The position numbers were made by a program, and so were the translations under genes. Shown here one piece after another: positions 6,001 to 20,354 of a DNA stretch of 64,000 nt (positions are counted from its first letter, which is position 1; each line of letters opens with the position of its first letter). The notes below the pieces were generated by a model. That model was not told where the DNA came from. It saw only the letters and a list, made by a program, of their open reading frames with translations, and searched no databases. Location of the stretch: NCBI GenBank assembly GCA_964448315.1, contig CAYUWJ010000044.1:15636-79635 (forward strand). The letters are read 5' to 3'. The DNA comes from an uncultured Sphingomonas sp. Lineage in GTDB: Bacteria; Pseudomonadota; Alphaproteobacteria; Sphingomonadales; Sphingomonadaceae.

Positions 6001-7253
6001 CAGGTCTTGGGGTTGGCGCAACTGGCGGGGTAGCTTGCGGTCGCGATGATGTCGGAGAGGCCGGAACCGGACTTGGCGACGTTGCGTATTTCGGTGACAT
6101 TGCCGCGCGAATCATAGGTCATCTGCGTGTAGTCGCCCTCGGGTCTGGTGACGCGGGTCGGGCGGTTATTGCTGTCGTACTGATAGCTCGTCGTGTCGTC
6201 TGTCTCGTTCTCGTCCGAAAGCATCAAGGCTTTGGCGATGTCGAAGGTGACGACCCGGGTCGCGCCGCCGGGATAGGTGACGGTGACGGTGCGAATGCCG
6301 CTTGCGTCGGCATAGCCGTAGCCGGTGGTCACGCCGCGATTGGTGATCGAGCTCACTCTGCCGCTGGTGTAGGTGACCGACACATTGTTGGTGGCGCTTC
6401 CCGGGAGTTGAATTGCGGTGACCTTGCCTCCGCTCAGCGTGTACCGCGTGGTGCGGCCTTCGGCGTCGATATAATCCTGTTGCCCAAAGCTCGTCTGCGG
6501 CATGTTGAGCACTGGCCGGCCGCTTTCGGGGCAGGAGAACGCCCAGGTCGGGCAGGGATCGACGGCACTGTTCAGCCCCTTCACCGTTTCGATATGCGAC
6601 CAGGTCATGATATCGCCGCTGCCGCTGACGGTGTTGATCGGATAGCTCAGCTTCATCATGTAGCCGGCGTTGGTCACGACAGCTTGCAACCGGCGGCCGT
6701 ACCGGGTCTGGCCGCGCTCCGAGACGTAGCTGTCCTCATGGTAAAGATAATCAAGCGTCCGGCCGCTGGGATAGGCCAGAGTCGATATGACGATGCCGCG
6801 CGCATTGCCGAAGAAGATCGTCGGCCCGCTGTAGAAGGTGGCGACGGTGCCCTCGGAGCTGGTGTAGGAATAGATGCCGCCCGATAATGTAAGGGTGGAA
6901 CCGGTCTGCTCGACCGGGGTGAACACGCCGCTGGAAAGGGTGAAGACTTCGGATCGGGGCCCCATTGCTACCGTGTAGGTCGAGCCGCTGACGCCGATGT
7001 TCCACATCATCGTGTCGCGGAACGTTCCGCCGCGGACTTCGCGAACGTAGCTCAGACCCATGTTGCCGCCGATGCGGATGGAGGGGCTTAGCACCGTGAA
7101 CGTGCCGGACAGGAGATCGACGCCGTTCCCGTCGGTGAACTGGCGGACCGGGAACGGAACGATGCTGGCCTCCTGCGCCAGCGACGGCGTGGCGAGCGAG
7201 GTGGTGGCGAGAAGAGCGCCGAAGCCGGCGCGGACAAAAACGGAAGCACGCAT
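3045..7253 (-). CDS. RHS / YD-repeat toxin with an N-terminal Sec signal peptide
   Basis: 1402 aa. Signal peptide MRASVFVRAGFGALLATTSLATPSLAQE. Dozens of YD repeats (YxYDxxGN/R). Core-end motif PDPIRYDGGMNLYAYVGNDPVSFADPLGL, followed by a 199-aa unrecognised C-terminal domain (about 3048-3644). RBS AGGGGGGA upstream. Confidence 0.9.
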   Translation of the reverse strand: MRASVFVRAGFGALLATTSLATPSLAQEASIVPFPVRQFTDGNGVDLLSGTFTVLSPSIRIGGNMGLSYVREVRGGTFRDTMMWNIGVSGSTYTVAMGPRSEVFTLSSGVFTPVEQTGSTLTLSGGIYSYTSSEGTVATFYSGPTIFFGNARGIVISTLAYPSGRTLDYLYHEDSYVSERGQTRYGRRLQAVVTNAGYMMKLSYPINTVSGSGDIMTWSHIETVKGLNSAVDPCPTWAFSCPESGRPVLNMPQTSFGQQDYIDAEGRTTRYTLSGGKVTAIQLPGSATNNVSVTYTSGRVSSITNRGVTTGYGYADASGIRTVTVTYPGGATRVVTFDIAKALMLSDENETDDTTSYQYDSNNRPTRVTRPEGDYTQMTYDSRGNVTEIRNVAKSGSGLSDIIATASYPASCANPKTCNNPSSTTDARGNVTDLTYDSAHGGVLTVTAPAPTGGAVRPQSRFSYTRLDANGAPSASGIIVPTGSSNCQTGTAPSCLGTANEVKSSIAYGYGLQPASTSSGAGDSSLTATLAMTYDAVGNLLTVDGPLPGTADITRNRYNLNREMVGVVGPDPDGAGALKNRARRVTIDNRGLVTRIESGTTIGQSDAAWAAFAPLEELQQDYDSNRRPSASRLVAGSTTYAVTQNSYDANGRLQCIAQRMNPAVFGSLPSTACSLGTEGSHGPDRLTRLYYDAVGRHTKTLVGYHTDEETYEVQKNHSPNGRLRYLFDAAVNRTTYLYDGHDRLGEVRYPVKVKPPGENPSSTTDRELFAYDANGNVTTFTNRAGQATSFTWDALNRQTLKNLPGTEPDVSYAYDNLGRMTSASQTGNSLSFTYDALGRNLTQVGPLGTICSNWDLAGRRTRLVYAGACASPTMFMDYDYLVTGEMTKIRENGATSGVGVLATIAYDNLGRRTSLTRGNTTTTTYTFDPVSRLSSLTQNLGGTANDLTIGSIGYNPASQIVSQNRTNDAYSWMGHGNGSTDYVPNGLNQIASISAATTTHDANGNLTSDPQTGKNYLYSSQNLLRAASGAGVPAVTLTYDPLMRLHDVIGNTSGAGTRFAYDGINMIAEYDAGNALQNRYVFGPGIDEPLVEYAGTGTSNRRFLHADERGSIVAATDSSGNLIAGSINTYGEYGTPGASNVGRFQYTGQAWLPELATYYYKARVYAPHLGRFLQPDPIRYDGGMNLYAYVGNDPVSFADPLGLNGCAVVTGSRICLSGGALIGALAAVGIIAEFVQPETGRDTDDELHTGLFMLDPALAECAQGNASACLLSAVGGLVYEADIRRGYLGGDDFAEPSWWEAYGIIDPGLNALESNLNAILSGFLSSDRASVPATQYGLIGGRYDFYQRYQPYDIPNNVELVLNGPRIFYGPTTGAIYFAPFHGRPGPGVPSGFILLFQELRR

Positions 7254-7292
7254 GAAAAATCCCCCCTGTTCGAACCCTGACCGAAGCGGGGA

Positions 7293-7520
7293 TCAGGGCG
7301 GCGGGGGATTGGGCGAGCCGGTGGTCTGCTTCAGCGTCCGATTATCGGCTTTATCGATCGTGTAATTGGTGACGACATTGTCGTTCACCGTACCGCTGCG
7401 CTCGACCTTAACCAGCCGGCCGCGCGAGTCGTAGCGGTAGGTGATCGTCTCGGCCGCATAGGCCGCTGCCGCGATGGCAGCTACGCCAAGTGCCAAAAGC
7501 CAGCGATGTTTCGAGTTCAC
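7293..7520 (-). CDS. small secreted YD-repeat protein upstream of RHS
   Basis: GTG at 7520 preceded by GGAGGAGG with a 6-nt spacer. Signal peptide VNSKHRWLLALGVAAIAAAAYA. One YD repeat (YRYDSRGRLVKV). The gene ends 39 nt before the RHS start. Confidence 0.5.
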   Translation of the reverse strand: MNSKHRWLLALGVAAIAAAAYAAETITYRYDSRGRLVKVERSGTVNDNVVTNYTIDKADNRTLKQTTGSPNPPPP

Positions 7521-7839
7521 GCCAAACCTCCTCCCGCGACAAAGCGCGGACGACTCGATTCGGCGGAGAAACAACTAACGCAAAAGCCAGGAGATGGAAA
7601 GCTGCGGGCATTCGGACATCGAGAATTCCATCATGCCGGAGAGCGGCGCCCGCTTGCGCAGCTGCATGGCTTTGAATAAGCAGAATCATCAGCGTGCCAG
7701 GGGCGGTAGCCGAATCCCGCCCCGTTTCGTCACAGCCAACTTCGCCGCCCTATATACGCTCCTGGCGCCTCAGGCGTTTGACATAATCAGGTGGATGGGG
7801 AGGATTGCCTGGCCGAATCGCTTCTCAGAGGGGAAGCCT

Positions 7840-8139
7840 GTGCGCATTGTCATTTCGCTTGTAACCGCCTCACTGGCGGCCGCTGCACCTGAAGCTGTGA
7901 TCGCTCATCCGGGCGGCCTCAATTCCGAGGGCTGCCACAATAACTGGAAGACCGGGGACTATCACTGCCACCGTGCATCGGCTTCTGCCAATCGAGGAAC
8001 GGTCAAAACCCTTTCGGGCAACCGCGCATTCCGCAACTGTTCCGAGGCGAGGGCTGCTGGCGCGGCACCGGTGAGGCGCGGCGATCCAAGCTACGGTCCG
8101 CACCTCGACCGGGACAATGATGGAGTCGGGTGCGAATGA
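7840..8139 (+). CDS. YHYH-domain / excalibur calcium-binding domain protein (secreted)
   Basis: GTG at 7840 after GGGGAAG. Signal-like N-terminus. HPGGLNSEGCHNNWKTGDYHCH matches YHYH. FRNCSEARAAGAAPVRRGDPSYGPHLDRDNDGVGCE matches excalibur. An upstream ATG at 7795 is an alternative start. Confidence 0.7.
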   Translation: MRIVISLVTASLAAAAPEAVIAHPGGLNSEGCHNNWKTGDYHCHRASASANRGTVKTLSGNRAFRNCSEARAAGAAPVRRGDPSYGPHLDRDNDGVGCE

Positions 8140-8609
8140 AGGCCCTGTTCTACTTCTACATGTTCCTGTTCGCCTTTGGCCTGCTGCCGGCCAATGACGC
8201 CAATGGCCAGGTCGTATCGGCTGGCCGAACCTTCACCTGTACGCCGGTCGCAGTCTGGGATGGCGACGGCCCGATCTGGTGCGCAGAAGGGCCAAGGATC
8301 AGAATTTCCGGGGTGGCTGCACGAGAAATCGACGGCGCCTGCCGCTCGAATCAGCCCTGCCCCCCCGTCAGCGGCACCGATGCCCGCGACCGGATCGTGC
8401 GGCTCTTCGGCGGCGCCAGGGGGAAGCTGCCGACCGGACACATCAAAGTGAGCGCGCCCGCGATGACCTGCGTGTCGGACGGCTCAGCCGGCGGTTCCAG
8501 AACAGCCGCATGGTGCCGGTCGCCTGTCTTCGGCGATCTATCATGCGCCGCGGTAAAAGCGGGCGGAGCTGTTCGCTGGGCGCGTTACTGGGGCGATCAT
8601 CGGTGCTAG
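8130..8609 (+). CDS. thermonuclease (SNase)-like secreted protein
   Basis: Hydrophobic signal sequence. The VWDGDGPIWCAEGPRIRISGVAAREIDG pattern resembles the DGDT..G..IRL.GIDAPE motif of SNase homologues. Overlaps the previous stop. Confidence 0.55.
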   Translation: MRMKALFYFYMFLFAFGLLPANDANGQVVSAGRTFTCTPVAVWDGDGPIWCAEGPRIRISGVAAREIDGACRSNQPCPPVSGTDARDRIVRLFGGARGKLPTGHIKVSAPAMTCVSDGSAGGSRTAAWCRSPVFGDLSCAAVKAGGAVRWARYWGDHRC

Positions 8610-8611
8610 CT

Positions 8612-9142
8612 GTGCGACGATCATCGCTGTCAGCTCTGTCTTCACTGTTGCTGGCATTGGCAGCCTGTGACGATCAGCCGCAGTTCAGCGAAAGCGCCCC
8701 GATCGCCGCAGCCGCTCAGGAGTTTCCTGAGCTGACAGGCACAGTCGTTGATCAGGCGAACCTGCTGACAACAGCTCAGGAACTCGAGCTAGCGGGCAAA
8801 TCGCAGGTGCTGGAGAAGCGGACGGGACGCCAGTTCGTAATCGTCACCGTGAACTCGCTGAGCGGCAGAGACGTGGCAGATTACACGACCGACCTGGCAA
8901 ACACGTGGGGCATCGGCCGCCAGGATCATGACGATGGGGTCGTTCTCCTGGTTGCTCCGAACGAGCGCAGGGTACGGATCACCGTTGGCTATGGGCTCGA
9001 GAAAACGCTCACAGACGAGTTGGCCGGTCAGATCATCAAAGAGGATATTCTCCCCCGATTCAGGGAGGGTGAGATGTCAGGAGGCATCCTCGCCGGTGCA
9101 GATGCCATCACCAGCCATCTGACCCCCCACGAGCAGAAGTGA
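8612..9142 (+). CDS. TPM-domain lipoprotein
   Basis: GTG at 8612 gives VRRSSLSALSSLLLALAAC (lipobox). Then LTGTVVDQANLL...QFVIVTVNSLSGRDVADYTTDLANTWGIGRQDHDDGVVLLVAPNERRVRITVGYGLE, typical of TPM domains. The longer ORF-track start (8279) overlaps the nuclease gene. Confidence 0.7.
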   Translation: MRRSSLSALSSLLLALAACDDQPQFSESAPIAAAAQEFPELTGTVVDQANLLTTAQELELAGKSQVLEKRTGRQFVIVTVNSLSGRDVADYTTDLANTWGIGRQDHDDGVVLLVAPNERRVRITVGYGLEKTLTDELAGQIIKEDILPRFREGEMSGGILAGADAITSHLTPHEQK

Positions 9143-9205
9143 ATTCACACCAGGCGACGGGACAGCAAGCCGCCCAGTCCTGTCACCGCACCTCGATGTT
9201 TGCTT

Positions 9206-10969
9206 TCAGTATGTCTCCTCGGCGGTTCGCAGTGGCGGCTGGTCGGGGAAGCCGAACAGTTTCCGCTGCAGAGCCCAGTCGAGAGGCAGGTTTGCGTCAA
9301 GGAGCGCCCTTCTCGTCAGGCTCCTGGGCTGCGCCCCATCCATGATGGACGTGACAATGTCGGGAGCGAGATAGTTCAGGCGAAGCAGCCGCATGAAACG
9401 GCTGAGGCTCATGTTTCTGCGTTTAGCGATCTCGGCCGGCGCAAGCTCGCGGTTCTGCTCGATCGTCGTCCAGGCCTCCCGGGCTTCGGTGACCAACTCT
9501 CGCAGCCGCCTGTTGATGCGATAGGTCTGAGCCTTGCGCGCGACGATCGGCAGGCGAACGTAGCGCTCGAGACGGATCGCACCGGCGCAGGGAATATCGA
9601 TCAGATGTGTGGGAGCTCGTGGCGTGTCTTCAGTGCGTCGGCGAAACAGACCGACTGAATCCCACTCGAGCAGATTCTCATATTCCAGCCCACGGGTCAC
9701 AAGCTTGATGCGCTCGCGCGCCACTTCGATACGAACGATCAGCGCATGCAGTACGCTACGGAGCTGGTCCCTGGTCAGGGCCTCCAGCCGCCGGCTGGCG
9801 ATCGGCCCCTTATGACACGCGTCGGCGAGCTCAGGCCCGTGTCGCCCCAGATCAAGAAGCAGCGATCTCAGCTGCTCGCGGTCGCAAAGCAGGTTCTGGA
9901 GTGCTGAGACTACAAGCTGCTCAATCTCGACTGAACGAGCGCCCATCCTCTTGACGCCATGTTGCTGGCACCAGGCACTCTGGTTTGAACGGTAGTACAC
10001 GCGCCACTTGCCCGACCTGAACTGCCGGTTGACCGGCATGCTTCGACCATAACAGTCGTACATCAGCCCACCGAGAACCTCTCGGGGCGCCGTAGTTGCC
10101 CTCTGCTCGATCTGCTTTTTTCGAAGGTCCGCGACACGCTCCCACTGGGCGGTCGAGACAATGCTCTCGTGGATCCCTCGGTACGGCTGACCGCCCGTCA
10201 TCACAAAGCCTGCGTAGATCGGGTTCATCAGGATATTGCGGATGTTGCCCGCTTGTAACGGGACGCCCGATTGCAGAATGCCCGTGCTCGGCCGCCAGGT
10301 TTTGGATCTGTAACCACGGGCCCTGCACGCCCGCCCTACAGCCGTAAGGTTGCCGCTCTCCAGATAGGAGTCGAAGATGAAGCGCACGATCTCCGATTCC
10401 TGCCGGTTCACGACCAGCTTCTTTTTGATGAGATCGTATCCGAGGGGCGGCCTGCCCCCGCTCCAGAGTCCCTTCTGAGTCATTGCACGGCGCTTGTCGC
10501 GAATGCGATCGCTCGTCATCTCCCGCTCGAATTGCGCGAAGGTGAGCAGGACATTCATCACCAGCCGGCCGAGGCTGTCGTCAGTGTCAAAGTTCTGTGT
10601 GATGCATGCAAACGACACGCCGTAGCGCTGAAAGACGTCCATCAGCCGCACGAAGTCCAGGAGACTCCTGCTCAGACGGTCGAGCTTGTAGACTACCACC
10701 ACATCGACACGGCCGCGCTCGATGTCTGCCAGCAGGTCCGTCATTGCCGGCCGATCGAGGGAGCCGCCTGACTGAGCTGCATCCTCATACTCTTTGTTGA
10801 TCTCAGTCCAGCCCTTGTGCTGCTGGCTCTGGATATATGCCGAGCAGATGGCATGCTGCGCCTTCAAGGAATTGAAGTCCTGCTCCAGCCCGTGCTCGCT
10901 GCTTTTGCGTGTGTAGATCGCGCATCTCTTTGTAGCGATCGGTGTGATGCTGAGGGTGGTCGCGTTCAT
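9206..10969 (-). CDS. large serine recombinase
   Basis: Start MNATTL at 10969. Resolvase catalytic N-terminus (RCAIYTRKSSEHGLEQDFNSLKAQ, VVVVYKLDRLSRS), then a recombinase domain. The C-terminal tail LAPDIVTSIMDGAQPRSLT..LPLDWALQRKLFGF is shared with the second recombinase at 44540. Confidence 0.9.
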   Translation of the reverse strand: MNATTLSITPIATKRCAIYTRKSSEHGLEQDFNSLKAQHAICSAYIQSQQHKGWTEINKEYEDAAQSGGSLDRPAMTDLLADIERGRVDVVVVYKLDRLSRSLLDFVRLMDVFQRYGVSFACITQNFDTDDSLGRLVMNVLLTFAQFEREMTSDRIRDKRRAMTQKGLWSGGRPPLGYDLIKKKLVVNRQESEIVRFIFDSYLESGNLTAVGRACRARGYRSKTWRPSTGILQSGVPLQAGNIRNILMNPIYAGFVMTGGQPYRGIHESIVSTAQWERVADLRKKQIEQRATTAPREVLGGLMYDCYGRSMPVNRQFRSGKWRVYYRSNQSAWCQQHGVKRMGARSVEIEQLVVSALQNLLCDREQLRSLLLDLGRHGPELADACHKGPIASRRLEALTRDQLRSVLHALIVRIEVARERIKLVTRGLEYENLLEWDSVGLFRRRTEDTPRAPTHLIDIPCAGAIRLERYVRLPIVARKAQTYRINRRLRELVTEAREAWTTIEQNRELAPAEIAKRRNMSLSRFMRLLRLNYLAPDIVTSIMDGAQPRSLTRRALLDANLPLDWALQRKLFGFPDQPPLRTAEETY

Positions 10970-11325
10970 GAGCGGGTCCTTGCGAATCACCCCACCCCGA
11001 TGGCGTTCAGAAGTTACGCCGAAGCGGCTCACGTGTCCTCGCACCTGCTCCTGCTATCCAACCCGCAGGATGCTCCAGCTCAACCAGCCGAATCCGCGGA
11101 TTTGGTGCACGGTGTTGAGTGGGGCTGTGTTGTGAGGCGGCTCGTATTGCTGTCGGCCATATGATCAGCCCGACACATGCCGGACGTCATGTGATGCGGC
11201 TGTTCAGGTCCTGCATTGAAGCTGAGGCTGTCCGCGGCCATTGGCCTGGTGCGAGATCGTCTGGCCCTTGACTCACTGGCGATAATTGCCCCAGCTGCGG
11301 CCTGCTCGGTTCCGGGGGGAACTGC

Positions 11326-11544
11326 ATGAAAATTCCGATCTTTTTCGTACTCGGCGCTGCCGTTCTGCTTGACTGGGGGCCAATTCCAGCGCCCGCGCTC
11401 GCTCATGGCGGGGGCGCGACAACGACGGGATCGGCTGCGAATGATTTCAGCTCAGGCTACACACCAACCCGTGTGCATATGGACGTACGCTTCCAACGAG
11501 CCAGAGCGTGGAGCGGGGGCGGTATTCGTAGCGTGACGACATGA
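11326..11544 (+). CDS. possible small signal-peptide ORF coupled to the membrane operon
   Basis: MKIPIFFVLGAAVLLDWGPIPAPALA looks like a signal peptide. Its stop overlaps the next start (ATGA at 11541-11544). No recognisable family. Confidence 0.25.
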   Translation: MKIPIFFVLGAAVLLDWGPIPAPALAHGGGATTTGSAANDFSSGYTPTRVHMDVRFQRARAWSGGGIRSVTT

Positions 11545-12956
11545 AGCCCCTCGAAGCTCTGCGCGCCTTTTTCAAACCGGCCGACGTCACCGTCGCGCTG
11601 CCGGACTCGCCGTTCATAGTCATCGACCGGCAAAAGGCCATTGAAACTCTCAAGCTCGAAAAGCGCGGAGAAGAAGCGGGCGCGAGGGAGCAGCCGCCGA
11701 CCGATGGTACCGAGCCTGACGCCGTCGAGGCCGAGATCTTTGCGGAGATGAGCGAGCACCTCAACCGGGCGCAGATCGATGCTGATAATAACCTCAGGGT
11801 CTACAGCCAACGACTGGGCGAGCTGGCGCTTCTACGGGAACTGTCGACAGTCACAGGGGCGAGTGAAACCGCTCTGGGCGATTACGATGCGACGATCATC
11901 GCCTGGAGAAATCGCCTGGCGAATGCGCGGGACGCTATCAAAGACTCCTACCAGGAGCTGACCGATTTCAAGGCTGAGCATGGACTGCGCCGGCCGGCGC
12001 ACGATGTTCCGCCACTGTTATACACCGGATCAGTCATCGGCGCGTCATGGGTAATCGAATCATTTGCCAACACCGCCTTCCTCCGTGTCGGCGACGAGTA
12101 TGGACTGGTCGGCGGGTTCGTCGCAGCAGCAATAATTGCCGCAATCAACGTATTCGTCTCGGCAATTGTTGGTCGGAAAATCTGGCCTTACCTCTTCCAC
12201 AGAGACTTATGGCGCCGGCTGGCCGCGTGGGTTGCCAGCGCCGCCTGGGCAGCAGGGCTCATTACCTGGAACATGCTCGCTGCCCATTTCCGCGACGCAA
12301 AGTCGCTTGGACTCGAAACGCCCGAAGTTCAGGCCCTGTCGCTGCTGGCCAGCAACACGTTCGTGCTGTCCAGCATCTACTCATACGGGCTTCTCGCGAT
12401 GGGCCTCGTCTTTGGAATTATTTCAGCAATCGCAGCCTTCAAGATGGACGACCCATATCCGGGCTACGGGCCGATTTATCGCCGGCACGAGGAGCGATGC
12501 GATGACTATGCCGATGAGATTGAGCAGGCGCTTGGCGAGCTGAAAGCGATACGGGATTCGGCGATTGGAATCCTGCGTGCCACGCGAGACCAGCTGCGAA
12601 TGCAGTTCGGTGAGCGCAATCAGATCATTGATGCGAGAAAAGCGCTTCTGGCCCGCTTCGAACAACACCAGGATTATCTCGACACTGTCGGCAATTCGCT
12701 CCTCGAACATTATCGCGCAGCCAACAGGCAGGCTCGTTCAACGCCGCCACCGGGCCATTTCAGACAAAAATGGAAGCTGCACCGCGCTCCACTGCCCCCG
12801 GTTCCCGAAGAGCCCAGCATCGAGGCAGACGTGGCAGCGGCCCAGCGAGCCCTTGATCACTCGATCGAGACGATCAGTAACGCTCACAACGGCGCGATCC
12901 GCAACTTCCAGGCACTCGACGAAATCAAAGGGTCGCTCGAACATGGCAAGGCGTAG
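11541..12956 (+). CDS. integral membrane protein with flanking coiled-coil regions (unknown family)
   Basis: 471 aa. Four hydrophobic helices in the centre (about residues 160-300), with helical charged segments on both sides. The 3' end overlaps the next gene by 14 nt. Confidence 0.7.
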   Translation: MKPLEALRAFFKPADVTVALPDSPFIVIDRQKAIETLKLEKRGEEAGAREQPPTDGTEPDAVEAEIFAEMSEHLNRAQIDADNNLRVYSQRLGELALLRELSTVTGASETALGDYDATIIAWRNRLANARDAIKDSYQELTDFKAEHGLRRPAHDVPPLLYTGSVIGASWVIESFANTAFLRVGDEYGLVGGFVAAAIIAAINVFVSAIVGRKIWPYLFHRDLWRRLAAWVASAAWAAGLITWNMLAAHFRDAKSLGLETPEVQALSLLASNTFVLSSIYSYGLLAMGLVFGIISAIAAFKMDDPYPGYGPIYRRHEERCDDYADEIEQALGELKAIRDSAIGILRATRDQLRMQFGERNQIIDARKALLARFEQHQDYLDTVGNSLLEHYRAANRQARSTPPPGHFRQKWKLHRAPLPPVPEEPSIEADVAAAQRALDHSIETISNAHNGAIRNFQALDEIKGSLEHGKA

Positions 12957-13761
12957 GACCGCGGCGGCTCTGCGCAAGCAGGACCACAACCGCAAGGCCG
13001 TTCGCAATATTGCGATCGCCGGACTGGCGCTGCTTCTGATCGGCTTTATCTACTTCAGGGCCGTGCTGGCCCACCAGTCACTCGACGAGGAAACGCTTTG
13101 CCCGCCTGATCCGACAAGCGTGACCGTACTTCTGGTGGACGTGACCGACCCGATGAACCTGCCGCAGCGGCAGGACTTCCTGAACCAGCTGGAAAAGCTT
13201 CGGTCTTCAATTCCGCGTTATGGCAAGCTCGTCGTGGCCAAGGTGGACCCGGTTTCTGATCGTCTGCTCGACCCGGTCATCACCCGCTGCAATCCGGGCA
13301 CCTCGGCTGATGTCAGTGAACTTACCGGCAATAAGCAGGCTGTGCAGAAACTGTGGGAGGAGCAATTCAAGGCGCCGCTGGATCGCGCTTTTGAGTCTCT
13401 GCTTACGGCCTCCGGCGCAGGCCGCTCACCGATTCTGGAGTCCATCCAGTCGGTAGCGCTGACGGAGCTTCAGACGCCGGATGTACTGGATAAGCCGAGG
13501 CGCCTTGTAGTCGCATCAGATCTTCTGCAGAACACCGACGCGATCAGTTTCTATCGCGGGCTTCCACACCCCAACCAACTCACGACCAGCCAGGCATTCA
13601 GCCGGGTTCGCACGGACCTTGGTGGCGTGGACGTTGAGCTGTGGATGCTGCAGCGCGACGACTCTCGAGTGACCCAGCCACGCCAGCTTCCAGACATCTG
13701 GGATCACATCATTGAGCGCCAGGGCGGCACATTGCGGCGCCTGTACACAGTGAGTGGGTAG
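12943..13761 (+). CDS. TM-anchored protein, possibly a vWA-like fold
   Basis: ATG at 12943 (MARRRTAAAL...). One N-terminal TM helix (IAIAGLALLLIGFIYF). Then VTVLLVDVTDP ... SPILESIQ ... RRLVVASDLLQNTD, which resembles a degenerate MIDAS/Rossmann pattern. The fold call is tentative. Confidence 0.6.
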   Translation: MARRRTAAALRKQDHNRKAVRNIAIAGLALLLIGFIYFRAVLAHQSLDEETLCPPDPTSVTVLLVDVTDPMNLPQRQDFLNQLEKLRSSIPRYGKLVVAKVDPVSDRLLDPVITRCNPGTSADVSELTGNKQAVQKLWEEQFKAPLDRAFESLLTASGAGRSPILESIQSVALTELQTPDVLDKPRRLVVASDLLQNTDAISFYRGLPHPNQLTTSQAFSRVRTDLGGVDVELWMLQRDDSRVTQPRQLPDIWDHIIERQGGTLRRLYTVSG

Positions 13762-13763
13762 CC

Positions 13764-15011
13764 ATGGAGAAGCATAAGATCGGCTGGATTGACCGACTAC
13801 AGGATCGGGGATTCGTCGATCAGTGGGGGTTTGTCCTGTTCGCATTTGCGGGCAGTGTCGCGATCGTTGCAGCCAAATATCTGGAAGTCTCTGCTACGTG
13901 GGTGGTGATCGGCGCCGTTGCGGTCATGCTGCTGTACGCGGCGATCATCGCAAGATCCGGTACCGGTCGGCTCCGCTCGGATCAGGCTGGCGACAATTGC
14001 TACTACCTCGGGCTGATTTACACCCTTTCCAGCCTCGCATATGCGATCTTCTTTTTCGATCCGGCAAACACGGCCACGACCATTGTCCAGGGTTTTGGGA
14101 TTGCGCTGGCAACGACAATCGCGGGCTTGATCCTGCGTGTGTTCTTCAATCAGGGACGGCCGGATCTGGAAAATGTCGAAGAGATCGCGAGGCTGGAACT
14201 CACCCAGGCCGCGGCGCAGCTGAAGACAGAGCTCGGCCAGGTCGTTCTCGGCATGAACGACTTCAGCCGACAGGTTCAGCAGGCCATCGCAGAGACACGC
14301 GATGCCGCAGTTAACGACATCAGCAATTTCACAGGCACCGCGATTGGCGGGCTGCAGGAAGTTGTTCAGACGACGAAGGATTCAATCAAGAACGAGGCAA
14401 CGGATTTCGCCTCCCGGTCGAAACGCTTTTCGAGCGCTGCAGATCGCCTGGTCACGGCAATTGAAGGCCATGGCAATAGTCTCGACCGTCTTCAGGAGAC
14501 CCAGGAGGCAATCGCCGAGACTGCCAGCGGTCTCAGCAACTCGACGAGCCAGGCGCAGACCGCTGTTGCTGGCTTCGCCACGCAATCCGAGGATGTTGCC
14601 GCAGGTATGCGGGCCCTTCGCGAAGGCGGCGAACATGTGCACAACACCGCTGAGCGAGTCTCCGTCATGCTGGGAAGCATTGAGGAAAGGGTTACGGCGT
14701 TCCACGGAGAACTGAGCCGGCAGCTCGACGAGGTCAGAGCAGCTCCGGGAACTGCGATTGCCAACGCAACGAGACTGCTCGGAGAAGCCGCAGCTGTTGT
14801 CAGGGCCGAACTGGAAGCACTTCAGACCGCTCACCAGAACGTCACGACGGAAATTTCCAACCAGGCTTCGGCCGCTCTCGAGACCACGAAACGACACAAC
14901 CAGGCGATGGAAGGCGAGCTCTCGCGCTCGCGCGAACTCCTTGAGAAAGTACACTCCAATCTCTCCGGAATGACGGCTGAGCTGGCCGCCCAGGTAGAGG
15001 GGCGCCGCTAG
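13764..15011 (+). CDS. MotA/ExbB/TolQ-like proton-channel protein with a roughly 270-aa C-terminal coiled-coil tail
   Basis: Four TM helices. The last two, YLGLIYTLSSLAYAIFFF..TIVQGFGIALATTIAGLILRVFFNQ, align by eye with the ExbB segment GLFGTVWGIM...GIAEALLATAIGLVAAIP. The rest is Ala/Gln/Glu-rich and helical. Starts 2 nt after the previous stop. Confidence 0.65.
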   Translation: MEKHKIGWIDRLQDRGFVDQWGFVLFAFAGSVAIVAAKYLEVSATWVVIGAVAVMLLYAAIIARSGTGRLRSDQAGDNCYYLGLIYTLSSLAYAIFFFDPANTATTIVQGFGIALATTIAGLILRVFFNQGRPDLENVEEIARLELTQAAAQLKTELGQVVLGMNDFSRQVQQAIAETRDAAVNDISNFTGTAIGGLQEVVQTTKDSIKNEATDFASRSKRFSSAADRLVTAIEGHGNSLDRLQETQEAIAETASGLSNSTSQAQTAVAGFATQSEDVAAGMRALREGGEHVHNTAERVSVMLGSIEERVTAFHGELSRQLDEVRAAPGTAIANATRLLGEAAAVVRAELEALQTAHQNVTTEISNQASAALETTKRHNQAMEGELSRSRELLEKVHSNLSGMTAELAAQVEGRR

Positions 15012-15014
15012 CCG

Positions 15015-15938
15015 ATGCAACGTTACGACATCAGGCAGGACAAGACCTATCGGCGTGGCCTCGTTCTGGGGCTCACAATGGCTGAGGTCATGATCCTCCT
15101 GATCTTCGTGCTGCTGATGGCTCTGGCAGCAGCACTGTCAAACCGCGACAAGCGGCTCGAAGCCGTGGAGGACGGAACCGGAAGCCGATTAGTGGAGGCG
15201 ATACAGGCCGCATATCCACAGACAGACAAGCCGGACGACTATTATAAGGAACTGGTTCGCGCGATCGAAGCACGCAAGGCAGTTGAAAAGGTCGGCCTGA
15301 ACTCTGCTCGCAGGAATCTGACCGAAGATGCAGAACTGGGTGAGCGAGTGCGTGAGGCAGCGCAGGATGCCGGCGCCGCAGACCCATGGAAGTTCGCCGA
15401 GAATGCGGTTGCTCGCGCAGGAGCCGGAAAGAAGGGCGAGTGGCCACCCTTCTTCAGCCTGAGCGAGGCCGGCGGATATTACTTTGACAGCGGCAAAGCC
15501 ACGCTGCGACCGGAATTTGAGCGCAACCTCCGTTCCACAATCATTCCGCTCCTGAGGCGCAACATAGATGACTATGGAGTCGATGTGGTCGAGGTGATTG
15601 GGCATACCGACGAGGTGCCTATGGTCGGCTCATCCAACCTCGACCAGACGCTGATCGAAGCTTCTGCAAGCCGGCTGCCGGTTCAGGCACTGCGTTCAAC
15701 CGACAATGCAGGCCTCGCGATCGCGCGCGCTGTTGCAGTCGTGCGTATCCTCCGAGCTGATCCGCGACTTCAGGGAATCACGATCCTCCCATTGTCGGGC
15801 GCACAGATGATCGTTCCGGTCGATCGGGTGGCGGATGGCTCAGCGAAAGGAAGTGACCAGCGCCGGCGCCGTATCGAAGTTCGACTGCGTCGTTCCACCG
15901 AGCAGGTTGCAACGGTTACTGAGGCGGCGCGCCCGTGA
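15015..15938 (+). CDS. MotB/OmpA-like peptidoglycan-binding protein
   Basis: N-terminal TM helix LTMAEVMILLIFVLLMALAAAL, with Glu where MotB has Asp. C-terminal OmpA-like domain (YFDSGKATLRPEF...VEVIGHTDEVP...NAGLAIARAVAVVRIL...RRRRIEVRL). Starts 3 nt after the previous stop. Confidence 0.8.
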   Translation: MQRYDIRQDKTYRRGLVLGLTMAEVMILLIFVLLMALAAALSNRDKRLEAVEDGTGSRLVEAIQAAYPQTDKPDDYYKELVRAIEARKAVEKVGLNSARRNLTEDAELGERVREAAQDAGAADPWKFAENAVARAGAGKKGEWPPFFSLSEAGGYYFDSGKATLRPEFERNLRSTIIPLLRRNIDDYGVDVVEVIGHTDEVPMVGSSNLDQTLIEASASRLPVQALRSTDNAGLAIARAVAVVRILRADPRLQGITILPLSGAQMIVPVDRVADGSAKGSDQRRRRIEVRLRRSTEQVATVTEAARP

Positions 15939-16234
15939 TGGATGAAATTGACCGCAATATCGCACGACTCTGGAGTGCGGTTCGACAGAAACAGCAAAGG
16001 GATGCCCGGACTGCGGGAACTTTAAAAAGACCTCACCCTGCCGGGCCGGCGCGGGCGCCTTTGGCCCCACCCCCCAGACCATCTTCAGGCGCGCCTGCGA
16101 CCTATTCAGATCCTGATTTGCCCCTTGAGCCCGTTGAAATCGACCAGTCTGTGGCAGACTCTACACGAGCTCCAGTCTCTTCCTTCAAGCGCTTGTTGCG
16201 TAGTTTAAGACGGTGGAGTCATCTGCAGCGGTGA
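15935..16234 (+). CDS. possible Pro-rich ORF coupled to the MotB-like gene
   Basis: GTGATG at 15935-15940 overlaps the TGA of the upstream gene. 99 aa, low complexity. No family recognised. Confidence 0.3.
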   Translation: MMDEIDRNIARLWSAVRQKQQRDARTAGTLKRPHPAGPARAPLAPPPRPSSGAPATYSDPDLPLEPVEIDQSVADSTRAPVSSFKRLLRSLRRWSHLQR

Positions 16235-16249
16235 CCCTGCCAGTAGTGC

Positions 16250-16575
16250 TGCCATCGCACTGCAGCGCCACTTCTGATCATTGCACGGCTCGCTCGAGAT
16301 CATGGCGCCACAGATCTCCTCGTCGAGGACCAGTCGTCAGGAAGCCAGCTCATTCAGACACTGCGAAGCGAGCAGCCCCACGGGGTCCCGCATCCGAATG
16401 CGCGGCGGCCCGAGGGTGACAAATACTCGCGGATGGCTGGCGTCAGCGGACAGATCGAAGGCGGCCAGCTCCTGCTCCTGGAAGATGCACCGTGGCTGGG
16501 CGAGTTTCTGACGGAGCTTCTTGGGTTCCCAAATGCGCGTCACGACGATCAGGCGGACGCGCTTAGACAGTTGGG
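16250..16575 (+). pseudogene. terminase large subunit 3' fragment (remnant)
   Basis: Translates to ARLARDHGATDLLVEDQSSGSQLIQTLRSEQPHGVPHP..EGDKYSRMAGVSGQIEGGQLLLLEDAPWLGEFLTELLGFPNARHDDQADALRQL. This is colinear with TerL residues encoded at about 1930-2220 but diverged at the DNA level. No N-terminal part is present. Confidence 0.75.
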
Positions 16576-16643: not shown

Positions 16644-16970
16644 GGGATGAACCTCGGCCCGCTTCCGACAGCAAGTGCGACAGGAGCCTGCTCGCTCGGC
16701 ACTCAGGCCACTCAGGGGCCGGACCGGATCACGAAGAACATCTATGATTCGGCTGGTCAGCTGACGAAGGTCCAGAAAGGTTTCTCACCGCAGATCAGGC
16801 CGATTACGCCACCTACACCTACACGCCCAACGGGAAGCAGCAGTATGTAACTGACGCCAACAGCAACAGGGCGCAGTTCCAGTATGACGGCCACGATCGT
16901 CTCCAGCGCTGGTATTTCCCGAGCAAGACCACCAAGGGCGCCGTCAACACCGCCGATTACGAGCAGTACG
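16644..16970 (+). pseudogene. RHS core fragment (frameshifted remnant)
   Basis: RMNLGPLPTASATGACSLGTQATQGPDRITKNIYDSAGQLTKVQKG, then a frameshift near 16790, then ADQADYATYTYTPNGKQQYVTDANSNRAQFQYDGHDRLQRWYFP. It parallels the intact RHS segment RMNPAVFGSLPSTACSLGTEGSHGPDRLTRLYYDAVGR...YLYDGHDRLGEVRYP. Confidence 0.7.
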
Positions 16971-17097
16971 TCCTGAGCGGCAGACAGTCTCATTGCCAAT
17001 CTCGCCGAACAGGCGGATAATAGAACAACAGCGTGCCGAATCTGACTGACGGAAAGCTGTGTGCAACCGGCACGCAGCCCATTGGCGGGAGGTCGAT

Positions 17098-17904
17098 ATG
17101 TGGCGGCTGCAATTCAAGCTCAGGCAAAAGGTAACTTCGAAGCGAGTCCTGTTGCTCGCGGCCGCTTCGGCGTTCATCATACCTGCCACACCGGCGCGGG
17201 CTGACGATGCGCGGCTGTACACGTTTCACTGCATGCGATCGTGTCCCGTCGGTGCGCCCGGGAACGCTGACATTGTCGTCCGGGAAATCTACACGCTCGC
17301 TTCGGACCCGCTGACCAAAATGTCCGTGTGGGTCGCGTACCGAGTCACTCGCGAGACGATCGGCCCGTCGCAGTCGCGCGGATGGGCGGCTGATCCGGCG
17401 CTTGCTCCCGACAGGACTCTTGAACCGGACGACTATGAAGGAGCAAATGCGGCGCTTAGCGTCGACCGCGGCCACCAGGCGCCACTGGCGGCGTTCTCAG
17501 GAACGCCATTCTGGCCGCACACCAACTACCTCTCAAACATTACTCCGCAGCCCTCCGAACTTAACCAGGGACCATGGCAGCGGCTGGAGGCCCGAGAAAC
17601 GAGATTGGCTAGAGAGACCGGCGCAGCGGTCTACGTCCTCACCGGGCCCCTGTTCGAGCAGCTTATGCCCGCTCTTCCGCGCGCCGATGAACGGCACAGG
17701 GTGCCGTCCGGATACTGGAAGGTGGTGATGACCGAAGATGGCCGCGCCACCGCTTTTGTCATGAATTACGATACGCCGCGCAATGCGAACTACTGCTCTT
17801 ACCGAGCCACACTCGATCATGTTGAACTGCGTGCGAGGCTTGTGCTCCAGCCTGCACGCACAGCACCGCTTCCCCCACTCGATTCGGAACTGGGGTGCCA
17901 GTGA
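17098..17904 (+). CDS. secreted DNA/RNA non-specific endonuclease (NucA/EndoG family)
   Basis: ATG at 17098. Signal peptide ending in ATPARA. Catalytic motif SVDRGHQAPLAAF, followed by NITPQPSELNQGPW. Confidence 0.85.
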   Translation: MWRLQFKLRQKVTSKRVLLLAAASAFIIPATPARADDARLYTFHCMRSCPVGAPGNADIVVREIYTLASDPLTKMSVWVAYRVTRETIGPSQSRGWAADPALAPDRTLEPDDYEGANAALSVDRGHQAPLAAFSGTPFWPHTNYLSNITPQPSELNQGPWQRLEARETRLARETGAAVYVLTGPLFEQLMPALPRADERHRVPSGYWKVVMTEDGRATAFVMNYDTPRNANYCSYRATLDHVELRARLVLQPARTAPLPPLDSELGCQ

Positions 17905-18062: not shown

Positions 18063-20354
18063 ATGAAAAGTAGGTCCGATCACAACACACCAGGAGCCCC
18101 GGTTAACTTCAGCGAAGTGATCAGGGGCGAAGCAGACGAAGTCCGCCGGCGTCGGCAAAAGCGCGGAGTAACCGAGGACGCTGTCCTCACCGGGCTGTCG
18201 CTGTCCGGTGGTGGGATCAGGTCGGCTGCGGTGTGTCTCGGCGCACTTCAGGGCCTGCACAGCAATGACGCGCTGCAGCGGTTCGATTATCTCTCAACCG
18301 TTTCTGGCGGCGGATACATCGGATCGTGCCTGAGCGTGGGCATGAGCGATACCGGAGGAGGAACGCATCCTTTCGGAGACGATGTCCGCGATAATGCGAT
18401 CGTCGCGCACCTGCGCAACTATTCGAACTACCTGCTGCCCAGGAATCGGAGTGCGATCCGCAACTGGCTTGAGGCCGCGGCGATCATTCTCAGGGGCCTT
18501 CTTGCTAATTCGATTGCCGTGGCCGCGTTTCTTGTCCCCGCGGTAATCCTGACGGTTCTCGCATTTCCGGGCCGCGAAAGCCTCCACGATCCCAATTTCC
18601 TTCCGCGACTGGTCGGGGGAATTTCCTCCCTGTTCGGGAGCGGCCTTCAGGTGCCCGGCCCGGGGATCGCAGGCAAGTCTGTCCCGATGATCATCCCGCT
18701 CGTTTTTGCAGTTCTGCTCGCAATCGTTCTGACTGCCTGGGCAATGCTGCGCACGTTTCCGGCGCTGGATGCAGTCACAAACGATACCCGAAGCTTCCTT
18801 CTCAGACTGGCATTTGCATTCCTGGCCGCGTCGCTTGTTTTTGTGCTGCTCGATCTGCAGCCGCTTCTGATCGGCTTCGCTCTTCGGGCAGCTGCCGCGC
18901 TGCGGGGCTGGGACATTGGTCCCGCACTGCTCACCATTGCGACCGCAATGGTCGGCCTCGCCACGTTTGCCGGCCGCCTCGGCCACTTCCTTGAATCCAG
19001 CAGCCGTACGGAGCGGCTTCGCACAATCCTGCTTCGTGGCGCAGCGAAGTCTCTGCTGGTTCTCGGTGCACTGCTGCTTCCCGCCCTCCTGTGGCTGATC
19101 TACGCCTGGTTATACCAATGGTCGCTTGAGGGCGGGCCCTATCGGATCAGCTTCAGCGGTCCGTTCCGGCCGGACACGCGCTTCGACCTTCTCGTGGTCA
19201 TCTGGACAGTCACCGTGCTGATCACCCTCGCGCTGCGGGCGAACAATTATTCGCTGCACTGGTTCTATCGCGACCGGCTCAGCGCCGCGTTTCTCGTCGG
19301 GACGAAGCAGGACAAGGTCGTTCATCTCGACGCCATGAAACTGTCTGATCTCGCGCCCAGCAATGGGCCGTTGCCGATCATCAATGCTGCTCTCAACTTG
19401 CAGGGCTCGCTCGAGGCGAACAAGCGGGGCCGCAATGCCGACTTTTTCAGCTTCACGCCGTTTTACACAGGCAGCGAACTTACAGGCTATGTCCGAACCG
19501 GCGACATGGAAAGGCTCGACCGGCGGGTCGATCTTGGTACCGCGATGGCGGTTTCGGGAGCCGCGGCATCGGCAAACATGGGCAGCAACACGGTCAGGCT
19601 TCTTTCTCCAACGCTGTCCCTGCTGAACGTCCGGCTCGGCTATTACCTGCTCAATCCGCGCTACATCGGTGAACTTGATTCAGGCAGAGCTCGTGCGAAA
19701 GCAGCACTCCAGCGCGGTTTCGACCGCTTCTATCTGCTGATTGAAATGTTCAATGGCCTCACCGAGCGCCGCCGGTCGATCTATCTGACGGACGGCGGAC
19801 ACGTTGAGAACCTCGGGATCTATGAGCTGCTGCGACGCAGGTGCGGGGTGATCTTTGCGATTGACGCGGAGGCCGATCCCGAGATCGCCTGCGGTTCGCT
19901 TCTCCGCCTCGAGCGTTACGCGCGGATCGATCTCGGGGCACGGATCACGCTGCCATGGGAGGAGATTGCCCGTCAGTCGCGCGCGACGTCAGCAGGCATT
20001 CAGGCAGGCGGCGCACCGTGCGAGTTCGGTCCCCACTGCGCGATCGGCAGAATTCTGTACGATCATGATCAGCAGGGACTTCTCGTCTACATCAAATCAT
20101 CGCTCTCGGGCGACGAGAAGGATTACATCCTCGACTACGCAAGACGTTTTCCGACTTTCCCTCACGAGAGCACCAGCGACCAGTTCTTCTCCGAGGAACA
20201 GTTCGAAATGTATCGGGCGCTGGGGTTCCACATGATTCAGGGACTGTTCGGGCGTGACCGGATTTCATTCGTGCAGGGTGAACCCTCCGGTTTTGCTGAC
20301 GAGGCCGCAGCGCGCGCGGCATTGCTGGCGCTCGGCAAGAAGATCGTGCCATGA
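18063..20354 (+). CDS. patatin/cPLA2-like phospholipase with a multi-TM insertion
   Basis: Oxyanion motif LSGGGIRSAA (about 18207). Nucleophile motif STVSGGGYIGS (about 18300). Catalytic Asp motif LTDGGHVENLG (about 19790). About 500 aa with roughly 8 hydrophobic helices lie between the Ser and the Asp. Confidence 0.85.
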   Translation: MKSRSDHNTPGAPVNFSEVIRGEADEVRRRRQKRGVTEDAVLTGLSLSGGGIRSAAVCLGALQGLHSNDALQRFDYLSTVSGGGYIGSCLSVGMSDTGGGTHPFGDDVRDNAIVAHLRNYSNYLLPRNRSAIRNWLEAAAIILRGLLANSIAVAAFLVPAVILTVLAFPGRESLHDPNFLPRLVGGISSLFGSGLQVPGPGIAGKSVPMIIPLVFAVLLAIVLTAWAMLRTFPALDAVTNDTRSFLLRLAFAFLAASLVFVLLDLQPLLIGFALRAAAALRGWDIGPALLTIATAMVGLATFAGRLGHFLESSSRTERLRTILLRGAAKSLLVLGALLLPALLWLIYAWLYQWSLEGGPYRISFSGPFRPDTRFDLLVVIWTVTVLITLALRANNYSLHWFYRDRLSAAFLVGTKQDKVVHLDAMKLSDLAPSNGPLPIINAALNLQGSLEANKRGRNADFFSFTPFYTGSELTGYVRTGDMERLDRRVDLGTAMAVSGAAASANMGSNTVRLLSPTLSLLNVRLGYYLLNPRYIGELDSGRARAKAALQRGFDRFYLLIEMFNGLTERRRSIYLTDGGHVENLGIYELLRRRCGVIFAIDAEADPEIACGSLLRLERYARIDLGARITLPWEEIARQSRATSAGIQAGGAPCEFGPHCAIGRILYDHDQQGLLVYIKSSLSGDEKDYILDYARRFPTFPHESTSDQFFSEEQFEMYRALGFHMIQGLFGRDRISFVQGEPSGFADEAAARAALLALGKKIVP

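Follow-up and report, generated by a model that had tools for sequence, protein, structure and literature searches.

We analyzed a cluster of four coupled genes, here called A to D, in a 64,000-nucleotide (nt) stretch of contig CAYUWJ010000044.1 from an uncultured Sphingomonas sp. The whole stretch is referred to as the window, and all coordinates are window positions unless another locus is named. The four genes lie on the plus strand and are tightly packed. Gene A (11541-12956, 471 amino acids (aa)) overlaps by 14 nt with gene B (12943-13761, 272 aa, read from the ATG at 12943), which is followed after 2 nt by gene C (13764-15011, 415 aa) and, after a gap of 3 nt, by gene D (15015-15938, 307 aa). 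A small fifth gene, E (15935-16234, plus strand), overlaps the stop codon of D. A first-pass annotation of the same DNA had described A to D as a coupled set, and its coordinates matched the list of open reading frames (ORFs) exactly. It had also included two small flanking ORFs. The downstream one is gene E, which is conserved, while the upstream 72-aa ORF (11326-11544) had no homologue in any other locus. The upstream ORF was therefore rejected as a component and probably lies outside the system. GC content stayed at ~0.59-0.60 throughout, and no local break was seen. A scan for promoters and terminators gave counts not above those of shuffled sequences, and no intra-operon site of note was found.

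A scan of one genome per species identified 139 C relatives among 185,579 species. We fetched 80 loci and searched them for A, B, and D by tblastn and iterative hidden Markov model (HMM) searches. Of ~84 loci, 74 yielded A, 78 yielded B, and 81 yielded D, and the misses fell at contig ends. The first-pass annotation had proposed a survey of the gene order in other genomes. The A-B-C-D order on a single strand was retained in essentially all of the ~80 loci, at identities down to 24-30%. More than 300 C homologues were found, with a near-constant length of ~415 aa, as well as 375 B homologues. These numbers and the retained order argue that A to D are not chance ORFs. A-B-C-D is a real and conserved gene cluster of diverse Proteobacteria that has so far been uncharacterised. 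None of the proteins A to D is named in Pfam, NCBIfam, or PADLOC, and RefSeq lists them as hypothetical or else gives C the wrong label of a chemotaxis receptor.

Gene C encodes a likely, but not proven, MotA/ExbB/TolQ-like subunit with four transmembrane (TM) helices and a ~285-aa helical tail that is predicted to be cytoplasmic. An AlphaFold model built with 47 homologues (mean predicted local distance difference test (pLDDT) score 72) placed the TM helices at residues 17-39, 44-65, 72-96, and 100-130, followed by a tail of two very long helices (134-232 and 240-414). This agrees with the ~270-aa coiled coil noted in the first-pass annotation. The motifs quoted there, GLIYTLSSL and GIALATTIAGLILRVFFN in C, LTMAEVMILL in D, and VDVTDP in B, are all real and conserved. 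Both C motifs fall in the TM3-TM4 hairpin, the most conserved part of the protein, where the family signature is GDNCYYLG(L/F)x(Y/F)TLxSL ... (G/N)FG(I/V)ALxSTIxGxxLRV. In a comparison of 63 diverse C sequences, which are 28-40% identical overall, residues G83, T87, L88, F111, G112, A114, T118, G121, and R125 were invariant.

When the N-terminal regions of these 63 sequences were scanned singly at E<=10, PF01618 (MotA_ExbB) matched 57 of them, always over TM3-TM4 (best E 6e-6), compared with 8 of 63 for the next commonest family. In the window protein, residues 81-124 aligned with profile positions 58-103 (E 0.35). In each of its last two TM helices, the MotA/ExbB/TolQ family has a conserved Thr that lines the pore around the carboxylate of the partner, and C carries an invariant threonine in each of these helices, T87 and T118. 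By motif (GLFGT... ALLAT), these would correspond to T148 and T181 of ExbB, which are the functional threonines, as are T145 and T178 of TolQ. In an hhalign comparison, the TM4 segment of C was set on ExbB 161-186, the stretch that contains T181. A functional role of conserved threonines in ExbB and TolQ has been described (PMC12204202).

The statistics of this assignment are weak and count against the stator-like reading of C. Window C scored 11 bits against PF01618, with a gathering cut-off of 22.9. The hhalign probability of the C N-terminal profile with ExbB/TolQ was 0.65%, with a thin three-sequence alignment as template, and a search of PDB sequences with the same profile returned no stator. 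When the C monomer model was compared by Foldseek, no match was significant, the top one being a type II ZorAB chain (E 0.18). Because of these results, and since the matches to ZorA were confined to the tail, we keep the assignment at likely but not proven. The first-pass annotation had assigned to C the last two helices of a MotA/ExbB/TolQ channel; the matches of its relatives support this, and the homology remains statistically weak. Direct searches of window C against Pfam, NCBIfam, and PADLOC gave coiled-coil noise only, and the whole-length profile matched mostly coiled coils in the PDB (methyl-accepting chemotaxis proteins (MCPs), apolipoprotein, and SMC), which was uninformative save for ZorA tails. 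C homologues annotated as 'methyl-accepting chemotaxis protein' were seen on the Rhizobium leguminosarum TA1 plasmid (locus L087, 8983-10332) and in the homologue H13. This label is likely a misannotation, probably caused by the helical tail.

Gene D encodes a MotB-like protein with a single TM helix, predicted to be N-in, that carries an invariant glutamate, followed by a linker and an OmpA-like peptidoglycan-binding domain. The motif Y(R/K)RGxxxG(L/F)TxAExxxLLxFxLL was found within the first 45 residues of all 81 D-equivalents, with G19, T21, E24, L28, and F31 invariant. The first 22 residues include five lysines or arginines, which is consistent with the N-in orientation. E24 lies in the LTMAEVMILL segment, so the earlier observation that D has Glu where MotB and ZorB have Asp extends to the whole family. 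Window D matched OmpA (PF00691) with 21.1 bits (E 4e-4, cut-off 27.2). Among its relatives, 55 of 77 matched OmpA at E<=0.01, several of them above the Pfam cut-off (28-34 bits). The PADLOC ZorB1 model matched residues 155-301 of window D, which is the OmpA part only (E 7.5e-7, 27 bits). Long D homologues in three loci (L083, L063, and L049) contain unassigned regions of 150-250 aa between the TM helix and the OmpA domain.

The TM3-TM4 matches of C, together with the single TM helix, invariant Glu, and OmpA-like domain of D, support the earlier description of C and D as a stator-like pair. Like the 5:2 ion-driven motors MotAB, ExbBD, and TolQR, the pair has a C hairpin with G-x-x-T and A-L-x-x-T-x-x-G, a gene order of A subunit then B subunit, and a D protein whose single TM helix has a carboxylate near its cytoplasmic end; the OmpA-like anchor is as in MotB. 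It differs from these systems in that the similarity of C is marginal, flagellar, TonB, and TolA/Pal partners are absent, the distribution is not that of a core-genome gene, and Glu takes the place of Asp.

Gene B is predicted to encode an N-in TM anchor and, after it, a periplasmic domain whose fold is that of von Willebrand factor A (vWA), with a partial motif resembling a metal ion-dependent adhesion site (MIDAS) and two invariant cysteines. Eight lysines and arginines precede the single TM helix, and a ~230-aa domain follows it. No VWA match was found for the B sequence in Pfam, and searches of NCBIfam and PADLOC were also empty. The AlphaFold model (pLDDT 89.7, pTM 0.82) matched integrin I domains, VWF A1/A3, CMG2, CLCA1, and BatB in Foldseek (probability 1.0, E 7e-5 to 1e-3, target-normalised TM-score ~0.5-0.6). 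The invariant residues are C53, D66, D69, C116, P118, S162, P163, D193, and W253, of which D66, D69, and D193 are held by VDVTDP and VVASDLLQ. The MIDAS region reads D66-x-T68-D69-P70, with S162 and D193 invariant and proline at the third motif position, in place of the canonical DxSxS...T...D. On the evidence of the model, B has a vWA fold with a non-canonical MIDAS-like motif (DxTDP), as the first-pass annotation had supposed when it called B a TM-anchored protein with a degenerate vWA/MIDAS pattern.

In a 2025 survey, vWA proteins that are TM-tethered and encoded beside TolQ-like motors were proposed to be force transducers, possibly related to motility or adhesion (PMC12204202). B would fit this idea by analogy. 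Common to both are an inner-membrane-anchored periplasmic vWA domain and strict synteny with a TolQ-like motor gene. B differs in that it has neither the SHLS/His motif nor the TM Asp, and the cluster differs in having a separate MotB-like protein, gene A, and a nuclease.

Gene A encodes a protein with four TM helices between two helical flanks of ~165 aa each, both predicted to be cytoplasmic. E173 (in TM1), A196, R251, P307, Y391, and R399 are invariant, and conserved polar residues in or near the membrane include E173, N177, N203, N244, H249, and R251. The motif DDPYPGYG follows TM4, and YRxANxxAR lies near the C-terminus. Searches of Pfam, NCBIfam, PADLOC, and PDB sequences gave no match for A, and profile searches of Pfam and PDB found nothing consistent; matches of the A profile to DUF4407 and RexB were rejected as noise-level.

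An E-type protein of 60-180 aa is encoded right after D in close relatives (L001-L023), with overlapping stop and start. These relatives begin with MD-x-(I/L)-D-x-N-L-x-x-L and end in a basic amphipathic stretch, and in L003 E is fused to the SNase anchor. The window ORF, whose likely start is the ATG at 15938, has both features, an N-terminal MDEIDxN(I/L)xRL and a basic C-terminal helix, which argues that it is a real gene. No match to E was found in Pfam, NCBIfam, or PADLOC, and no TM segment was detected, so E is probably cytoplasmic.

Across the loci, the only recurrent neighbour family is an SNase. In each of three distant homologues on annotated contigs, an SNase gene lies just 3' of D. 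The copies on Microvirga and Rhizobium plasmids are annotated as four hypothetical, OmpA, or 'MCP' genes plus a 'thermonuclease family protein'. By iterative HMM, the SNase is fused C-terminally to the OmpA domain of D in 15 loci, giving the layout TM, coiled coil, OmpA, SNase, and in 27 further loci it has its own gene, at most 3 kb away. The nuclease is thereby detected in at least 42 of 77 loci, which is a lower bound because the HMM misses the variant present in the window and in L005, a locus described below. In L077, the D homologue (11037-12719 of that locus) ends in a GmrSD_C nuclease (DUF1524-type, His-Me) in place of the SNase. The SNases of the relatives scored up to 57.8 bits against PF00565 (cut-off 21). 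Stand-alone SNases have at their N-terminus either a signal peptide or a lysine- and arginine-rich segment plus a TM helix, and their Cys pairs are retained. Some of them end in an Excalibur-like motif, and the proteins of L017 and L026 have a C-terminal Excalibur-like Cys motif.

Since the nuclease is either fused after the OmpA domain of D or encoded with a signal or anchor sequence, it is predicted to be periplasmic. The first-pass annotation had stated that the cluster lacks a nuclease effector. This does not hold for the family, in which an SNase, once replaced by GmrSD_C, is the only recurrent extra component, and the predicted location of the nuclease implies a mechanism different from the one suggested there.

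In the window, the nuclease is probably represented by a divergent SNase-like (SN-like) gene with an N-terminal signal peptide (8130-8609, plus strand), judging from its similarity to the nucleases of related loci. Its protein is 62% identical to that of an ORF (7269-7769) in L005, a Sphingomicrobium metagenome-assembled genome (MAG) that is the closest genome locus. There, the orthologue ends 5 nt before gene A. Phmmer linked the window protein to the SNases of L022 and L024, which match PF00565 seeds, and DGD, Arg, Glu, and Arg are retained in the alignment. The end of an Excalibur (extracellular Ca-binding) protein gene (7594-8139, plus strand, Pfam Excalibur E 1.1e-17) overlaps the start of the SN-like gene; in L085 this gene is called as window 7633-8139. 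An Excalibur-like ORF is also found near the operon in L005, and the Excalibur gene is possibly an accessory of the nuclease module.

The window copy is rearranged. An apparent ~2.9-kb insertion (8648-11044) separates the SN-like gene from A and contains a TPM-domain gene (~8648-9142, plus strand, Pfam TPM_phosphatase match) and a large serine recombinase (9206-11044, minus strand). The recombinase, which the first-pass annotation had placed next to the cluster, was confirmed by Resolvase and Recombinase domain matches. This segment, which is absent between the SN-like gene and A in L005, does not belong to the system. Downstream of E, the window has no SNase gene, and the second nuclease gene is a stub. 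This remnant (16225-16290, minus strand) comprises the last ~22 codons and the stop of a convergent SN-like gene. It was recognized by tblastn with SN-like residues 138-159 (E 8e-4, 54.5% identity), has HRC and the stop codon at its end, and is cut at a rearrangement junction. Next to it lies a 5'-truncated terminase copy (16286-16573), with 90.6% protein identity to residues 368-463 of the terminase encoded at 832-2397. At the DNA level, 1948-2207 and 16301-16560 form a repeat of 85% identity.

Several further features were observed around the cluster. The full gene for the terminase large subunit (832-2397) lies 14 kb upstream of its truncated copy, and the block with the RHS, nuclease, recombinase, and A to E genes lies between them. 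A 1402-aa RHS-repeat protein is encoded upstream (3045-7253, minus strand), and translation revealed a short YD/RHS-like fragment downstream (~16740-16990, plus strand); together they point to repeated rearrangement of toxin cassettes. Farther downstream are a gene for a secreted or anchored DNA/RNA non-specific endonuclease (Endonuclease_NS, 17059-17904, E 1e-35) and, after it, one for a 763-aa patatin-like protein with six TM helices (18063-20354). Neither protein matched PADLOC. Endonuclease_NS was not taken to be the effector, as terminase and RHS fragments lie between E and its gene and it does not recur in other loci. ARAGORN reported a tRNA-like element, 'tRNA-???' (acgc), at 41339-41417, in or beside ORF 40590-41804.

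The family is sparse and patchy in its occurrence. Searches with the C N-terminal domain matched 1,621 cluster representatives (50% identity) at E<=1e-3 and 914 at E<=1e-10, among 1.84 billion. The hosts are mainly Alphaproteobacteria, and also include the Lysobacter group, Arenicellales, and a few others. The cluster was found on 24 of 72,556 plasmids, of which 11 are conjugative. No match was found among 50,697 phage records, and a phage-encoded origin was rejected on this basis. The flanks vary between loci and include integrases. The occurrence in 139 of 185,579 species, the variable flanks, and the plasmid copies identify an accessory cluster, and a core Tol/Exb paralogue was rejected on the distribution and the flanks.

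We examined the context of the cluster by searching neighbouring proteins with PADLOC. Strong matches were obtained for at least 13 (~11%) of the 122 nearest neighbours that are not nucleases and have a length of 150 aa or more. These include SngA (twice), BrxL, a type I methyltransferase, a prokaryotic Argonaute, PD-Lambda-1, and type II restriction-modification (RM) components, as well as PDC-S01, PDC-S02, PDC-M28C, UzuA, and RmrA. Several other nearest neighbours are integrases or transposases, and type I RM and EcoRII/Vsr genes adjoin L002, L003, and L008. In the window, none of 10 neighbouring proteins matched PADLOC. The 'defence-rich' context claimed in the first-pass annotation thus holds only moderately, and only elsewhere in the family. 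The setting of the window copy is mosaic and conflict-related, with RHS, terminase pieces, a recombinase, Endonuclease_NS, and the patatin-like protein, and is not defence-rich.

Two other loci deserve comment. On a Microvirga ossetica plasmid (L086), a recombinase-family gene (4718-5734) lies upstream of A-B-C-D-thermonuclease on the opposite strand, the same arrangement that the window shows; it may be a coincidence or may reflect a recombinase-associated travelling cassette. The loci L009, on a contig binned as Phycisphaerales, and L010, in a Sphingobium MAG, have identical C N-terminal regions, downstream ORFs, and tblastn identities to the window proteins. Binning contamination, rather than transfer between phyla, is the likely explanation.

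We consider the chances to be about even that the cluster is a new stator-based envelope system, horizontally mobile and envelope-spanning, that probably acts against incoming DNA. Nuclease domain swapping, the patchy and plasmid-borne distribution, and the enrichment of defence genes among neighbours are the reasons for favouring such a role. In the mechanism that we propose, C and D would assemble into a 5:2-type motor or sensor that is tethered to peptidoglycan, with C as the channel subunit with its cytoplasmic helical tail and D contributing the TM Glu and the OmpA-like peptidoglycan anchor. The vWA domain of B could be a periplasmic ligand-binding or force-transducing arm, and A, E, and the C tail could provide cytoplasmic coupling or regulation. 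The output would be the extracytoplasmic nuclease, usually the SNase, fused to the periplasmic end of D or co-encoded. The trigger would be a breach of the envelope by an incoming DNA-delivery device, such as a phage tail, gene transfer agent (GTA), pilus, or conjugation apparatus, upon which the nuclease at the interface of inner membrane and peptidoglycan would degrade the incoming DNA in the periplasm.

A more specific form of this proposal, which we hold tentatively and regard as possible, is that the cluster represents an undescribed immune class. In it, a stator-like, ion-driven motor would be anchored to peptidoglycan and equipped with a vWA arm for sensing and a 4-TM partner. Through this motor, a nuclease in the periplasm would destroy DNA of phages, GTAs, or plasmids that has not yet entered the cytoplasm, and self would be distinguished from non-self by compartment and not by sequence or modification. 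Envelope-stage defence has precedents that could serve as analogies. The nuclease SNIPE is bound to the membrane and acts on phage DNA at entry (bioRxiv 10.1101/2025.11.03.685801). HXS has a periplasmic effector, and HxsA, which has a peptidoglycan-binding domain, acts in the periplasm (PMC13128918). The likeness to SNIPE and HXS is conceptual only: phage DNA is acted on at entry, and self and non-self are told apart by position rather than by sequence. SNIPE differs in being a single protein, HXS in depending on radical S-adenosylmethionine maturation and in being a non-nuclease, and neither has a stator-like motor.

Besides the weak statistics of C, several points weigh against this proposal. 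The SN-like protein of the window had no Pfam match at E<=0.001, and its gene lies 2.9 kb from gene A. In this protein, VAARE replaces IDAPE, with Ala at the position equivalent to Asp40, so that one canonical Ca ligand is lost and its activity is uncertain. In 35 of 77 loci, no nuclease was detected within 3 kb by iterative HMM, and the neighbours of the window copy gave no PADLOC match. Phage DNA normally crosses the periplasm in a conduit, so the access of a periplasmic nuclease to it is not obvious. Finally, the long cytoplasmic tail of C has no explained role if the output is periplasmic.

A rival explanation, which we regard as doubtful, is that the cluster serves non-immune envelope physiology. 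It would then be a trans-envelope machine that runs on proton-motive force, in which a motor like TolQR/ExbBD is combined with a vWA force transducer, a role that has been proposed for vWA proteins beside TolQ-like motors (PMC12204202). The machine would process extracellular or periplasmic DNA to the benefit of the cell itself (by scavenging nucleotides or phosphate, in competence or GTA-DNA processing, or in the turnover of extracellular DNA in biofilms), or it would maintain the envelope, with a secondary nuclease. In favour of this explanation, the nuclease is predicted to be extracytoplasmic and belongs to the secreted, Ca-dependent SNase/Excalibur type, the flanks of many loci are of an ordinary housekeeping kind, no known defence gene lies near the window operon, and the 35 loci with no detected nuclease also fit. 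Against it, a nutritional or housekeeping machine would not usually be so sparse and patchy in its occurrence or be present on plasmids, the nuclease domain is exchanged between SNase and GmrSD_C, defence genes and integrases are over-represented beside the locus, and a scavenging nuclease could do without the motor, the vWA arm, and the cytoplasmic tail.

Zorya offers the closest comparison among known defences. ZorAB proteins belong to anti-phage systems of types I-III (PMC11946911, PMC11890865). If the cluster were a genuine Zorya-type system, a ZorAB-like C/D pair would sense envelope perturbation and signal through the C tail to cytoplasmic effectors, and DNA would be degraded inside the cell; we consider this unlikely. 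The architecture does fit: the gene for a MotA-like subunit whose C-terminal helical tail is long immediately precedes that for a MotB-like peptidoglycan-binding subunit, in an accessory cluster linked to a nuclease, as in Zorya I and II. The only defence-related matches were to PADLOC ZorA and ZorB models and PDB ZorA chains, and the top Foldseek match of C, a non-significant one, was a type II ZorAB chain. However, the PADLOC ZorA models matched C from residue ~133-153 onward, that is, in the tail only (best E 9e-5), and the PDB ZorA chains also matched along the tail (8vvn_C, E 4.9e-5; 8qyd_A, E 2.2e-4). Such tail-only, low-complexity matches came alongside SMC, MCPs, and apolipoproteins. 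The NCBIfam model antiphage_ZorA_1 scored 13.4 bits on C against a cut-off of 190, and neither the ZorA nor the ZorB models reached their cut-offs. None of ZorC/ZorD, ZorE, or ZorF/ZorG was found, and A, B, E, and 10 neighbours had no PADLOC match. This agrees with the remark in the first-pass annotation that no known Zorya effector is present, and the Zorya-like membership that it had proposed was not upheld.

The cluster also differs from Zorya in its parts. C is much smaller, with four TM helices in ~130 aa and a ~285-aa tail, and lacks the large ZorA-specific domains, both cytoplasmic and periplasmic. As its TM carboxylate, the pair has Glu where Zorya has Asp. Two extra obligatory membrane partners are present, A and the vWA protein B, and ZorC-G are missing. 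The nuclease is an SNase or GmrSD_C, C-terminal to the OmpA domain or provided with a signal or anchor and so predicted to be on the periplasmic side, whereas the Zorya effector is soluble and cytoplasmic. Judged by these matches, the cluster is not a member of Zorya; it may work like Zorya in its core, yet it appears to differ in the location of its effector.

That the motor aids the export or delivery of a nuclease toxin to competitors, as suggested by the export signals of the nucleases and by the conflict genes around the window operon (the 1402-aa RHS protein, the RHS fragment, the secreted Endonuclease_NS, and the patatin-like protein), is very improbable. In 15 loci the nuclease is covalently joined to D, an inner-membrane protein with a peptidoglycan anchor, which argues for retention and not export; the flanks show no recurrent immunity-gene pattern and no recurrent secretion-system genes; and the RHS context is peculiar to the window.

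If the proposed role against incoming DNA is correct, the Zorya principle, in which a motor derived from the flagellar stator serves as an envelope sentinel, would reach a second, unrelated-looking family of ~900-1,600 protein clusters at 50% identity. The output would lie on the other side of the membrane, and a motor-coupled periplasmic nuclease would be a new solution to the discrimination of self from non-self. The family would also be a tractable model for a Glu-based stator, for the proposed vWA 'force transducers', and for a new 4-TM partner family. The cluster may be a new means by which bacteria destroy foreign DNA on its arrival at the cell envelope.

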